Assembly: GCA_013812775.1 (NCBI GenBank)
Contig: JACCSX010000004.1
Location: 1 to 53,315, forward strand
DNA: 53,315 nt
Origin: Tatlockia sp.
GTDB taxonomy: Bacteria > Pseudomonadota > Gammaproteobacteria > Legionellales > Legionellaceae
Reading direction: 5' to 3'
The notes under the pieces were generated by a model. The model saw only the letters and a program-made list of their open reading frames with translations, searched no databases and was not told where the DNA came from. The position numbers and the translations under genes were made by a program. How positions within the stretch are numbered: position 1 is the stretch's first letter; each line of letters begins with the position of its first letter. Positions 30,111-39,040 of this stretch are shown here, piece by piece.

Positions 30111-33050
30111 CTAATTCATTAATAATAATGAAGGAACATTTTCTGCATCCGCTATTCTAAGCATTTGATAGGCAACGCCTGCGCGACCTGTCATTAATCC
30201 AGGTGCGGCAAAATTTTTTACGAGCCCACATTGGAATGAACCTTCATCGATGGTCGTCAGAATTTTTGTTGCCAATTGGTAATACTGTCGAGTTAATTCT
30301 CTTCCCTGAAAAAAGCGAGCTGCGTTAAGAAATAACTCTAAATTACCAAGATTACCATGGCAAAGACATTCATAACTTCCGAAGCCCTCTTTTGCAGTGG
30401 TTTGCAAAGCAAGTTGGATTTCTTTGTGGATCGCTCCATCATGCCATTTCTTAGCCATATCCAACCTAGCTAATCCTATTCCTGACGCGCCATGACACCA
30501 TGCGGTCATGAACTTGGTATTAAAGGTATCCGACTCGAGGTCTTTTCTAAAATCTGGCCAATTACCCGCTTCTTTATTAAATTCTGCTCTTTCATAGTCA
30601 AGCGCGGCTTGAATCCATCTTTTTACTTTCAACCGGGGTTCTAATAGGAAATATCGATGCAGTGCCCAAGCAATTCCAGCCACACCATGTGAAAAGCCTA
30701 ACAATGGTTGCTTAGATTCTGTTGCATAAAAACGAGGAAATTGACTGGGGTAAGGATAGTTTTGCAAAATATGACGAACGCAGGCGCGTGCGTAAGGCAT
30801 AAATACCGTTTTAGGGATGATGCCTTGTAGGGACATTAATGCAGCTAAACACCCGGCTGCGCCACTTATAATATCGTAGGATTTATCGTTACTAAGCAGA
30901 GGAGGAATAGCACCTAGGAAGTGATGCAAATCCGTTTTAATACATTCATCCTTCCCTAATTTAAATAGCCTTCCGAAGGCATAAATCAGCCCTCCTATGC
31001 CCTCAAAACCTCCGACAGTCTTAATATCTTCTTTTTTATTCTCTTTCCATTGAATATGAAGGCTGTTCTGACATTGCTGTGCGAGGGCAGCATATTGTGG
31101 GTCATGCAAAATTTTTGCACCATATGCAAAACTTAAAGCAATTCCTGCGAGTCCATCATAGAGATGAATATCAGTAAAATCTGGTACCCAAATGCCGGAG
31201 CCTTTAACAGCAATCGTCGGCCAACAAATAGTATCAAACTTTATAATATGAAGTTTTTTTAACTCATCTAGCTCTCTTTTTGCTATGCTTAAGGCTTTGG
31301 ATTGCAACTCTTCCAATTGCAAAGATTTATACCGGACTTGTTTAGCAGGAGAAACAATTCTCTCAGTCTTTTGATTTAATTCAAGCGCTTCAAAACTGGC
31401 TAAAATTAATGTTTTTTGCAAATATAAATCCTCGGTATTCACATGATTTTGAATATGTTCAAGAAGACATTCGTAGCCTGTTTTTATTATAGGAATATGG
31501 ATGACTTTGCCTTGACTATCCACTATTGTCTTGCCGGATGTAGAACAACTAAATAGAGGAATCGTATTTTGATTTAGATCATATAATTCGGAATTAATTA
31601 TTTTCTCATAGTAAAACGATTGATTAATAATATTTTTTAATATCGAAAAATATGATTTCCTGGCCTTGGCTTTACATAAATAATCTGGATGCCAACTTTC
31701 GGATAGCAAAATGCCATAATAAGTCGTTAAACGAAAAACAATTCGAATTGGAAGATCTTTAAATTGATTAAGCATTAATTCATTAAATAAGAGGGGGAAA
31801 TGGTTTAAAATACACAGATAGGTCTCTTCAAATCCCTGCAAAAATTCATTTTTGTAATCTAGCAATTGAACATTTTGATTCAACAATTTGGGTTTATTCA
31901 AATATTCCCTTGTCTTAACCGGTAGGCGTTGTGCATGCATAGTATCTTTGCCGGCATCTAACCATTTAATATATAAGAAAGATGTTTCCTCGCCCTCTTG
32001 TGATCCTAAAGCACTCATATCTATCCCTTTACTTGCTTTTCCAACCACAAATCGACCAGGAAGAATGGTCATGTCGTTAACCAAAAAGCGGGATAATTGA
32101 TTATGAGCATCTTTTTTCATCGCATAAAAAGGATTTAAAAAACACTCATAATCGATCAAAACAGGATATTCGCTATGAGCAATTAGATTTTCAGCATGAA
32201 GATCATCCCCTTTTAATAAGTAGGACAACATGAGTATGATGCCCATCCGATAATAAAAATTTTTGATCTCTTCTTTATTCTGACAGGGTAAATGATCGAT
32301 AAATTCGCACCAACCATAATTATTTTTATTTATTACTTTTAAAGTTAATAACTTTAAATGATTGGCATGGCTGTTAAACCTGTGAATAAAATCCTGAAAT
32401 GCGACATCCATAGCGAGCGAGCGAGGTTTGTAGAGAAGTTTTATTTTTTTATTCGTTTGTTGGTGTTCAAATTCTAAAATCATTACCGCACGGCCTTGAT
32501 TATGCCTATCTCCCATTTCTTCAATAATAGATAATTGATAGGCCCTTTCTCCTTCCAAAAAATACTCAAGTAATTCATCATAGTCATGTTCTAATCGATT
32601 CAGTAGCTCTTCAAACAGAAGGAGAAATTGAACCCTATAAATTTCAATCTGTTCTTTCAGAACGGGATATTTCTTAAAAAAGAGTCGTTTATTTTTAGAT
32701 TCAACTAATACTTTAATAAAGGATGAAAACCGCTTCTCCGATGTTTCTCCTGCTAATAGACCCTGTTGACTTAAGATGTGCATTTCCAATACACATACCC
32801 TGATAATCATAGGATTAACGTTAGCTTTGAAATTTTTAAGTATAAATTGCGTTAAAAATTCTTCTTTCGCGCAATAAGCAAAATTCGGATATTTTTTAAT
32901 TGTTTGTTTTAATTGAGAAAAGAGGCTTTCCATCACCGGCATTAATATCAATAAAAAATGATATTCTTTAGCACTCAACAGAATGAGAGAGTTCCATTTT
33001 TTAAAGTTTGCCTGCTTATTTGAAACTGACACATCAAAAATTGGCTTCAT
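30111..33050 (-). CDS. lanM: Class II lanthipeptide synthetase LanM (DUF4135 dehydratase + LanC-like cyclase)
   Basis: Dehydratase motifs GDRHNQG, YKPRSL, YGWCEFI, DLHAEN, IDYE, RxxFRxT; cyclase motifs LYDGLAG, DIISGAAG, GFSHG, WCHG, CLCHG, GLMTGxAG (Zn ligands present). Confidence 0.93.
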   Translation of the reverse strand: MKPIFDVSVSNKQANFKKWNSLILLSAKEYHFLLILMPVMESLFSQLKQTIKKYPNFAYCAKEEFLTQFILKNFKANVNPMIIRVCVLEMHILSQQGLLAGETSEKRFSSFIKVLVESKNKRLFFKKYPVLKEQIEIYRVQFLLLFEELLNRLEHDYDELLEYFLEGERAYQLSIIEEMGDRHNQGRAVMILEFEHQQTNKKIKLLYKPRSLAMDVAFQDFIHRFNSHANHLKLLTLKVINKNNYGWCEFIDHLPCQNKEEIKNFYYRMGIILMLSYLLKGDDLHAENLIAHSEYPVLIDYECFLNPFYAMKKDAHNQLSRFLVNDMTILPGRFVVGKASKGIDMSALGSQEGEETSFLYIKWLDAGKDTMHAQRLPVKTREYLNKPKLLNQNVQLLDYKNEFLQGFEETYLCILNHFPLLFNELMLNQFKDLPIRIVFRLTTYYGILLSESWHPDYLCKAKARKSYFSILKNIINQSFYYEKIINSELYDLNQNTIPLFSCSTSGKTIVDSQGKVIHIPIIKTGYECLLEHIQNHVNTEDLYLQKTLILASFEALELNQKTERIVSPAKQVRYKSLQLEELQSKALSIAKRELDELKKLHIIKFDTICWPTIAVKGSGIWVPDFTDIHLYDGLAGIALSFAYGAKILHDPQYAALAQQCQNSLHIQWKENKKEDIKTVGGFEGIGGLIYAFGRLFKLGKDECIKTDLHHFLGAIPPLLSNDKSYDIISGAAGCLAALMSLQGIIPKTVFMPYARACVRHILQNYPYPSQFPRFYATESKQPLLGFSHGVAGIAWALHRYFLLEPRLKVKRWIQAALDYERAEFNKEAGNWPDFRKDLESDTFNTKFMTAWCHGASGIGLARLDMAKKWHDGAIHKEIQLALQTTAKEGFGSYECLCHGNLGNLELFLNAARFFQGRELTRQYYQLATKILTTIDEGSFQCGLVKNFAAPGLMTGRAGVAYQMLRIADAENVPSLLLMN

Positions 33051-33199
33051 TTTTAACCTTAGTGATTAAATGCAGACACTAGAAATAGTCTATAATTATA
33101 ATATAGTAATAAATAGGCAATTTAGGGAAAGTGGGTCCTATTAAATTCAGGAAAAAGTTTAACTGGATATTAAACTTCTCCTAATTGAGGAGTATTCAA

Positions 33200-37790: not shown

Positions 37791-39040
37791 TTTTGTAACC
37801 ATCGTCTTAAGGTGGGAATAATCAATGTGATCGGCGCTTGTTCCTGTACAGTGATATCTGCTTTAACAGAGGTGCCAGGCGCCAAAAATTGGTCTGGCCC
37901 TTTTCCAGATGACCATTTATAACCACTGAAAGTTTTCAAATCTTTCATTATGCTTATTCTAACCACTACTGTTGCCCCGGATTTGGGCCGGCGTTTAGCT
38001 AGAGTTAGATTATGTAAAGCAGTTTTTATGCTTTCTGGAACATTTGATAAAGTTGATATGGCAGAAACCTTGCCCATTAAGCTACCAAATTCCTCTCTTG
38101 GAATATTCTCTGGTGAAACTAAGCATTTTTCTCCAACTTTGATACGTTGTCCATCTTGAGTTGATACATAGATGAATGCCTCTAATCCTCTTTGCTCATC
38201 AGCAATACTAATGATGGGTTTACCTCCTTTAATAGGATCACCTATGGCAATATGAATTGCTACAACGATGCCATTAATAGGACTACGTACGGTAGTATCT
38301 AAAAAGTGCTGTGCTTTTAATTTTGCTAACATGTGGGATGCATCTATAATTTTTAAATTCAAATCGCGCAGACGTTGTTGCAATTCTTTTTTTAAATTAT
38401 TTAGAGCAGCCTTTTTCTGAATTCGTTGCTTGTTTGTATATTCCAAATGTTGCTTAACTGTATTTAAGTCATCTATTACATGCCATTCTTGACGCTCAAT
38501 GAGCCCTTTTTTAAAAAGGTACTTTTTTCGTTTTAACAACTCTTCAAGGGCGAGAAGATTATCATTCTCTGCTTTAATCGAATTTTGTAGTATTTCTTGA
38601 ATTTGATTGGCTTCTTTTTGTAGGCTAAAAATTTCATGCTGTAATACTTGCAAAAGCGTTGTATATTTAACCTCTAACTGTTGCAAATAATTTTGCTGTT
38701 TATTTACTTGTTCTATAATATTAGGGGCTTCTAAAATGGCTATCACCTCATTTTTATAAATACGATCACCCACTTTTACCCGCACATTAATCACTCGAGC
38801 TTGGCCCTCAGGACCAATTACATCAAACATCCCCCCATTTTGAGCTAGCAAAATCCCTTTACCTGTGGCGCGAATGGGAATGCTGCCTAAAAAGCTCCAA
38901 AGGACTAGGATAAATAATATTATAAGAAATGCACCTAACAGAATCCAACCACTCGGAGTGACAACGCGGGTAAGTTCGGTTAACCTTTCAGGAGAGGTTA
39001 CATCCTCCAAAGCAGCTTGGCGGAATTTAATTTTGCTCAA
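37787..39040 (-). CDS. NHLP bacteriocin system secretion protein (HlyD-family membrane fusion protein)
   Basis: FRQAALE..SPERL...VVTPSGW N-terminus, TM helix, coiled coil, YKWSSGKGP; TTG 39040 preceded by AAGGAG. Confidence 0.9.
   Translation of the reverse strand: MSKIKFRQAALEDVTSPERLTELTRVVTPSGWILLGAFLIILFILVLWSFLGSIPIRATGKGILLAQNGGMFDVIGPEGQARVINVRVKVGDRIYKNEVIAILEAPNIIEQVNKQQNYLQQLEVKYTTLLQVLQHEIFSLQKEANQIQEILQNSIKAENDNLLALEELLKRKKYLFKKGLIERQEWHVIDDLNTVKQHLEYTNKQRIQKKAALNNLKKELQQRLRDLNLKIIDASHMLAKLKAQHFLDTTVRSPINGIVVAIHIAIGDPIKGGKPIISIADEQRGLEAFIYVSTQDGQRIKVGEKCLVSPENIPREEFGSLMGKVSAISTLSNVPESIKTALHNLTLAKRRPKSGATVVVRISIMKDLKTFSGYKWSSGKGPDQFLAPGTSVKADITVQEQAPITLIIPTLRRWLQK

Follow-up and report, generated by a model that had tools for sequence, protein, structure and literature searches.

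A probable class II lanthipeptide gene cluster with an NHLM-type exporter in a Tatlockia species of the Legionellaceae

The window analysed here is a stretch of 53,315 nucleotides (positions 1 to 53,315 of contig JACCSX010000004.1, assembly GCA_013812775.1) from the genome of Tatlockia sp., a Legionellaceae species. It contains five adjoining genes (Table 1) that, judging from their sequences, form a real and probably functional class II lanthipeptide gene cluster with a predicted product: lanM, for a lanthipeptide synthetase; lanA, for a short putative precursor peptide; and a three-gene exporter operon, for an HlyD-type adaptor, an ATP-binding cassette (ABC) transporter with a C39 peptidase domain (C39-ABC), and a second ABC protein. 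All five reading frames are open, with no stops or frameshifts across about 8.5 kb of coding sequence, and a profile search of the window proteins placed the four enzyme and transport genes above their respective NCBIfam cut-offs. A preliminary description of this DNA had proposed a class II lanthipeptide cluster with an NHLM-type exporter, and the matches to TIGR03897, TIGR03794, TIGR03796, and TIGR03797 bear this out. The cluster combines an exporter common among genomes of the Legionella family with a LanM that is rare among them.

Table 1. Coordinates of the cluster genes and adjoining features in the window
Feature	Position	Strand	Basis
kdsB, left flank of the insertion, outside the cluster	29293..30054	+	TIGR00466; neighbourhood in 22 congeners
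lanM, class II lanthipeptide synthetase (dehydratase + zinc cyclase), 979 aa	30111..33050	-	TIGR03897; PF13575 + PF05147; CylM-mapped residues
lanA, putative precursor, 56 aa	33200..33370	+	RBS GAGGAG; residues 24-36 fit the leader profile
Hairpin where lanA and the ABC gene converge, probably a terminator for both	33423..33458		Folding of both strands
Second ABC permease/ATPase, NHLM-type, lacking a peptidase domain, 711 aa	33523..35658	-	TIGR03797
ABC transporter with C39 peptidase domain, 711 aa (start at the ATG overlapping the hlyD stop)	35655..37790	-	TIGR03796; PF03412
Periplasmic adaptor of the NHLM-type HlyD family, 417 aa (TTG start)	37787..39040	-	TIGR03794; RBS
Decayed second copy, last ~30 codons of the ABC gene + same hairpin	39452..39650		Similarity to 33419-33567

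The LanM protein reaches 796 bits against TIGR03897 (cut-off 304), with the DUF4135 dehydratase domain (PF13575) at residues 128-502 and the LanC cyclase domain (PF05147) at residues 625-977. The catalytic and zinc residues of CylM, as named for phosphorylation, elimination, and zinc binding in the available text of PMC4550811, are identical in 12 of 12 cases (D181, H183, K208, D283, H285, N288, D300, R436, T442, C852, C897, and H898), so that the dehydratase and zinc-cyclase motifs are indeed intact, as had been proposed. The closest solved structures are LicM2 (PDB 6ST5, E 1e-81) and CylM (PDB 5DZT, E 6e-41), whose full catalytic set is also conserved in the LanM of the cluster. Both belong to two-component lantibiotic systems of Firmicutes, with precursors and export unrelated to those found here. 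H788 is taken to be the cyclase acid. Because of its family membership and conserved residues, this LanM is predicted to carry out dehydration and cyclization.

The lanA open reading frame (ORF) lies 149 nt from lanM in the divergent orientation, and a GAGGAG ribosome-binding site (RBS) precedes its ATG by 7 nt. Its product is basic (net charge +7) and Lys-rich at the N-terminus, with double-Gly-like sites at G21-G22 and S35-G36-A37, while the C-terminal part offers T40, S42, C46, S50, T51, T55, and C56, i.e., five Ser/Thr and two Cys beyond residue 37, with Ser/Thr ahead of each Cys. The predicted core is weakly cationic (net +2), and residues 38-56 have an unmodified monoisotopic mass of 1927.8. 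The terminator proposed earlier downstream of lanA fared less clearly: the hairpin folds on both strands (-15.1 and -16.2 kcal/mol; z -3.7 and -4.0; 1 of 200 shuffles as good per strand), but it is absent from the output of the consensus terminator scan. An Rfam search over 29500-45500 gave no match.

The end of the leader was approached with a profile of 20 leaders from family peptides. Residues 24-36 of lanA reach 12.8 bits, a score equalled by 4 of 5000 shuffles, true family leaders scoring 5.8-28.5 bits when each is left out in turn, and the best fit is with the short-leader class (16.8 bits). The C39-ABCs nearest to that of the cluster by tree path also mostly accompany short leaders. The G21-G22 site scores at chance, with 22% of shuffles as high. 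In the register ending at G36, L25, I30, and L33 match the hydrophobic anchors at -12, -7, and -4 which, with a GG, GA, or GS end, define C39 substrates according to the available text of PMC6363468. The leader would thus rather likely end at residue 36 or 37, leaving a predicted core of about 19-20 amino acids, with an end at G22 as a serious but less favored candidate.

A genome-wide motif scan found four short RBS-bearing double-Gly ORFs, only lanA having two Cys. No paralogue of lanA was found in the draft assembly (tblastn and motif scan), nor was a second precursor recognizable in six frames ahead of the repeat at 39452-39650. Searches of two very large protein collections returned only lanA itself (1 match among 1.84 billion in one of them), an Atlas search gave best scores of 0.88-0.89, under the lead threshold of 0.9, and there was no NCBIfam match at E 0.1 and no Pfam match at E 0.5; this putative precursor is an orphan. 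Its assignment to the NHLP/Nif11 peptides is rejected, since it matches neither TIGR03793 nor TIGR03798, its leader is at most 37 residues rather than long, and there is a single precursor. A two-part (chimeric) leader is a weak idea: MAFFT pairs residues 15-26 with a motif found in the candidate precursors of related LanMs, and this pairing is inseparable from controls (12% and 3.8% of shuffles score as high in two profiles).

The three exporter proteins score 247 bits (HlyD, TIGR03794, cut-off 156), 941 bits (C39-ABC, TIGR03796, cut-off 853), and 760 bits (second ABC, TIGR03797, cut-off 709). ATGA overlaps join HlyD to C39-ABC and C39-ABC to ABC, in agreement with the translational coupling described earlier, and AAGGAG is found upstream of the HlyD start, a TTG at 39040. 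The spacing of the C39 triad (C18/H92/D108) equals that of LahT (C27/H101/D117). The best named relative of the HlyD protein is from Legionella pneumophila (37%), and the host genome encodes DotA over cut-off, both in keeping with the Legionella-like host first suggested. Two further HlyD relatives (P0123 and P0124) reach 47-50% identity. TolC exceeds its cut-off on another contig (C169), unlinked to the cluster, as is normal for such exporters according to the available text of PMC6959600; its absence from the cluster, therefore, says little on function. ORF calls and NCBIfam/Pfam scans of 30055-41307 recovered no recognizable immunity, receptor, or regulator ORF. The preliminary observation that immunity gene, regulator, and TolC are missing locally thus stands, but not the function that had been read from the lack of TolC, and the absence of TolC and of an immunity gene is a weak clue to the role of the product.

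Beyond the operon, 39452-39650 resembles 33419-33567 (77.5% identity over 160 bp, E 3e-24), with two copies only in the assembly. It corresponds to a frameshifted C-terminus of the ABC gene, and together with 33419-33629 it forms a diverged direct repeat that brackets the exporter operon. From its sequence, it is read as the relic of an earlier exporter copy, and its frameshifted state indicates that the locus was rearranged, consistent with assembly from parts. The repeat was also considered as a mobile element, and this was rejected (two copies in the assembly, one 27-bp match in 24 relatives).

The exporter is no cyanobacterial oddity, as the preliminary description would have it. Over-cut-off HlyD matches occur in at least 45 of 203 scored family genomes, host included (a lower bound, with 8 candidates scored per genome), and the available text of PMC6959600 describes two such bacteriocin secretion systems, LB2SS being present in 9 and LB3SS in 11 of 45 Legionella species. 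LanM exceeds its cut-off in 2 of 206 family genomes, the second carrier having no exporter match over cut-off, so LanM and exporter were scored together in the host genome only. Of the 49 other exporter places over cut-off, 40 were inspected (L068-L087 and L274-L293), and the stretches around them contain no LanM. A double-Gly pattern, which misses the Cys-poor EAGG-type leader present at L084 and L086, found 42 small ORFs in 24 of these loci, or 39 in 22 of the 40 loci once three false matches (a TatA-like ORF, an internal fragment, and a MoaD-like ORF) were dropped. The leaders come in two styles, one of 15-18 amino acids and one longer and Lys-rich. These unannotated peptides, by their sequences, are likely the cargo of LB2SS/LB3SS-type pumps. 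Since 37 of the 39 are without Cys, lanthionine bridging of the usual cargo is not possible, and the two-Cys lanA stands out.

Other lanthipeptide-related genes were seen in the course of the survey. Apart from the cluster, a full LanM occurs in the family only at L031:5415-8291 (genome G002). This protein is 26% identical to that of the cluster; its last zinc ligand is aligned as Cys in place of His, and neither precursor nor exporter was found on its 9.7-kb contig. LanM genes with the dehydratase half only occur at L032:9160-10770 (G022, 536 aa) and L310:8049-9689 (G573, 546 aa), and represent either truncations or dehydratase-only systems. In eight genomes of genus g38 (L033:5766-8498 and L004-L011), a kinase-LanC protein of about 910-930 aa is encoded, which best matches class IV LanL (466 bits, under the 650 cut-off); Cys/Thr-rich ORFs of 113-168 aa lie upstream of it in the two loci examined in full. 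With class IV-like clusters in eight family genomes, lanthipeptide genes are not unique to the host genome. At L087:14386-19016 (G072), the same exporter type is followed by genes for a double-Gly peptide and for MoaD-like, ThiF-like, YcaO, and TfuA proteins, a probable thioamide-peptide cluster.

The nearest relatives of the LanM are 18 proteins with 32-48% identity (45-48% for four of them, P0002-P0005), followed by cyanobacterial LanMs at about 33%. Two quick trees, both carrying composition and long-branch warnings, group it with these 18 relatives, apart from the cyanobacterial and other named LanMs (support 96 and 99). It thus apparently belongs to a separate, apparently undescribed branch; a cyanobacterial donor is unsupported by these trees, and the NHLP/Nif11 framing of the preliminary description falls with it. 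Among 399 other gammaproteobacterial genomes, sampled evenly, LanM exceeds its cut-off in 12. Five of these carriers, from five families (G246, G413, G483, G536, and G573), have LanMs that best match the host branch, three of them placed in the tree. DotA is found in all five, compared with 92 of the 399 overall and none of three genomes with other full-length LanMs (nominal probability 0.0006; the carrier lineages may be kin, which makes this association a lead only). Order-level searches around G536, G573, and G483 (2, 2, and 3 genomes) found no further carriers.

The exporter is present elsewhere in the genome in two of the five branch carriers, and 12 loci of related LanMs that were checked show no HlyD/C39 trio beside the enzyme. 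Ten short acidic Cys-bearing ORFs adjoin the branch LanMs (L168, L169, L194, and L306-L311) and share a Leu...Gly-x-Ile/Val-Glu-Met/Leu-Pro-like motif; nine were scanned, with no Pfam match under E 0.02. Judging from their sequences, these ORFs may constitute a new family of precursors, to which no C39 exporter is linked.

As for the insertion site, the gene 3' of kdsB in 16 of the 22 congeners with a kdsB match is homologous to a gene that lies at 45237 or farther on in the window; a LanM after kdsB is seen in none of the 22. This synteny indicates that about 15 kb were inserted at a variable site. The cluster does adjoin kdsB, as first described, but the insert extends beyond it. The same insertion includes a gene for a 642-aa effector-like protein (41487-43415, minus strand), with weak SET (E 1e-4) and TPR matches, diverged copies of which were seen in the sequencing runs examined. 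Farther on, a 1103-aa protein without Pfam/NCBIfam match (45237-48548, minus strand) has fast-diverging homologues after kdsB in 10 of 22 congeners. The ORF at 40309-41307 (plus strand, 332 aa) was considered as a tailoring enzyme and rejected, as it has no useful family or PDB match and its homologues occur in 4 of 23 congeners without LanM. Its N-terminal part resembles by eye what we take to be an S-adenosylmethionine-binding motif, with no family match.

Several known systems can be set beside the cluster. A LanM next to the TIGR03794/03796/03797 trio was described in 2010 for Nostoc sp. PCC 7120 and prochlorosin-type systems in PMC2887384, whose available text already presents exporters and modifying enzymes as mixed and matched, and whose main text does not feature Legionella. 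These NHLP/Nif11 LanM clusters share with the present one the LanM, the same trio, a leader apparently of double-Gly type, and a short Cys/Ser/Thr core, whereas the latter has a single 56-aa precursor without NHLP/Nif11 match and a LanM of a separate branch. LB2SS and LB3SS resemble the cluster in their NHLP-type exporter, which comprises two ABC genes, one of them encoding a C39 domain, but the cluster adds LanM and a Cys-bearing precursor, and the available text of PMC6959600 names no substrate or modifying enzyme. The class II products of Dyella (rhodanocin) and Pseudomonas ogarae are given as the first characterized gammaproteobacterial lanthipeptides in the available text of PMC9576775, which also includes an L. 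pneumophila graspetide. By description, they are of the same LanM product class. They contain 3-4 rings, and the rhodanocin precursor belongs to DUF6229, whereas lanA, with its two Cys, matches no Pfam family. With the LanM-trio pairing known since 2010 and gammaproteobacterial class II products already made, as far as the available texts go, the locus is less unusual than the preliminary description held. Its remark that no Legionella lanthipeptide has been characterized holds for the literature searched, mostly without subscription papers, and the rows listed of the precursor table of PMC7268733 include none for Legionella.

Taken together, the cluster quite probably specifies a class II system in which LanM would act on Ser/Thr within the final ~19 residues of lanA by phosphorylation and dehydration, after which C46 and C56 would add to dehydrated residues to close up to two thioether rings, two Cys allowing two at most. 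From their spacing, the rings might sit side by side (T40 or S42 to C46, and S50 or T51 to C56), which is a guess. Leader removal would fall to C39-ABC, with the second ABC, HlyD, and the unlinked TolC as its partners in export. lanA is proposed as the LanM substrate because it is the only adjoining short Cys-bearing double-Gly ORF. Historically, a LanM from the branch of Dot/Icm-bearing Gammaproteobacteria would have been joined to a Legionella-type exporter otherwise found beside Cys-free peptides, and the exported peptide would act on other cells in a shared niche.

Several observations weigh against this reading. In the second ABC protein, Gln replaces the H-loop His, a point overlooked in the preliminary description, and the signature is LSFGQ; among 39 relatives of this protein, 36 keep His in the H-loop, one has Gln, and two are unparsed. 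Together with the adjoining decayed exporter remnant, this marks a rearranged locus. In a careful tree, C39-ABC falls outside every well-supported group, and its best identity to the 40 family loci is 50%. Each candidate cleavage site of lanA breaks one rule (Lys at -12 for G22; Ser instead of Gly at -2 for S35-G36; Glu at -7 for G36-A37), and the leader profile was built from non-redundant leaders of related genomes picked by a Gly-Gly/Gly-Ala pattern. Ordinary double-Gly peptides match the motif of the related LanMs' precursors at least as well as lanA in 18 of 39 cases (30 of 39 with a smaller profile), and lanA, at +7, contrasts in charge with the ten candidate precursors beside related LanMs (-1 to -9). 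Finally, no sequencing read piece covers the whole stretch, and none links kdsB to hlyD.

Part of this evidence would fit an accidental juxtaposition, in which lanA is ordinary cargo exported unmodified and lanM was acquired recently, its own acidic precursor having been lost or being encoded elsewhere. Precursors convergent on the ABC gene also occur without LanM in the family (e.g., L069, L071, and L079), lanA is unlike the precursors of related LanMs, and the site after kdsB is variable. Nevertheless, the scarcity of Cys among the family peptides, as opposed to two in lanA, each after Ser/Thr, a LanM intact across 979 codons, and the locus of G536, where the nearest LanM with known context (41% identity) is accompanied by a divergently oriented short ORF with Cys, in the same layout, make this improbable. 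A decaying or silent cluster, with open genes but crippled export or no expression, would account for the H-loop and signature changes, the frameshifted relic, and the promoter-like sites, which like the output of the terminator scan are at chance level (38 observed, 36 expected). It is also quite unlikely, given coding sequence free of stops and frameshifts, the canonical motifs throughout C39-ABC, and the non-canonical signatures also present in the second ABC of relatives. An assembly artefact or contaminant contig would be conceivable in a draft of 329 contigs with 3.7% contamination and no single piece bridging kdsB and hlyD, but it is very improbable: kdsB and flanks syntenic with congeners on both sides of the insertion lie on the same contig, and the GC content at third codon positions of the four large cluster genes (0.28-0.31) is at the 11th-25th percentile of 1188 long host ORFs, within the host range. 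Near-identical pieces of lanM, C39-ABC, and hlyD also occur in sequencing runs of two studies, one 580-nt contig joining the lanM start, lanA, and the hairpin (its run may be the source sample), and flank and cluster pieces co-occur at 99% or more in the second study. No RNA run was listed among those holding the sequence.

The preferred reading, a class II cluster with an exported ring peptide, leaves several roles to be ranked. Narrow antagonism of competing bacteria comes first, as a tentative choice; signaling is second and rather doubtful, and action on a protist host third and unlikely. The view that the peptide signals cell density or niche, or targets a protist host, rather than competing bacteria, keeps some plausibility, in that no immunity, receptor, or regulator ORF was recognized locally, the core is short and weakly cationic, and the LanM branch tracks DotA-bearing lineages. 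However, a sensor or response gene is not linked either, the DotA link may reflect shared descent only, and a missing immunity gene is weak evidence. Export across both membranes, together with the outer membrane, can shield a Gram-negative producer.

The surprise is limited, given that both the reaction chemistry and the arrangement of the genes are standard. The cluster is a candidate for the first class II lanthipeptide of the Legionella family; neither of the two protein collections searched contains another peptide like its putative precursor, and the system is small enough for study as one enzyme with one peptide. A broader scenario, which we consider unlikely, is that a LanM branch not recognized before, equipped with precursor families of its own, moves among intracellular Gammaproteobacteria that bear Dot/Icm, its ring peptides serving life in or beside protist hosts, that the enzyme here captured an LB2SS/LB3SS-type pump through a two-part leader, and that Cys-free double-Gly peptides are the normal, unreported cargo of these pumps. 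More widely, the survey provides candidate substrates for the published but cargo-less LB2SS and LB3SS, as well as a LanM branch sampled in DotA-bearing lineages, both of which are leads that reach beyond the locus.

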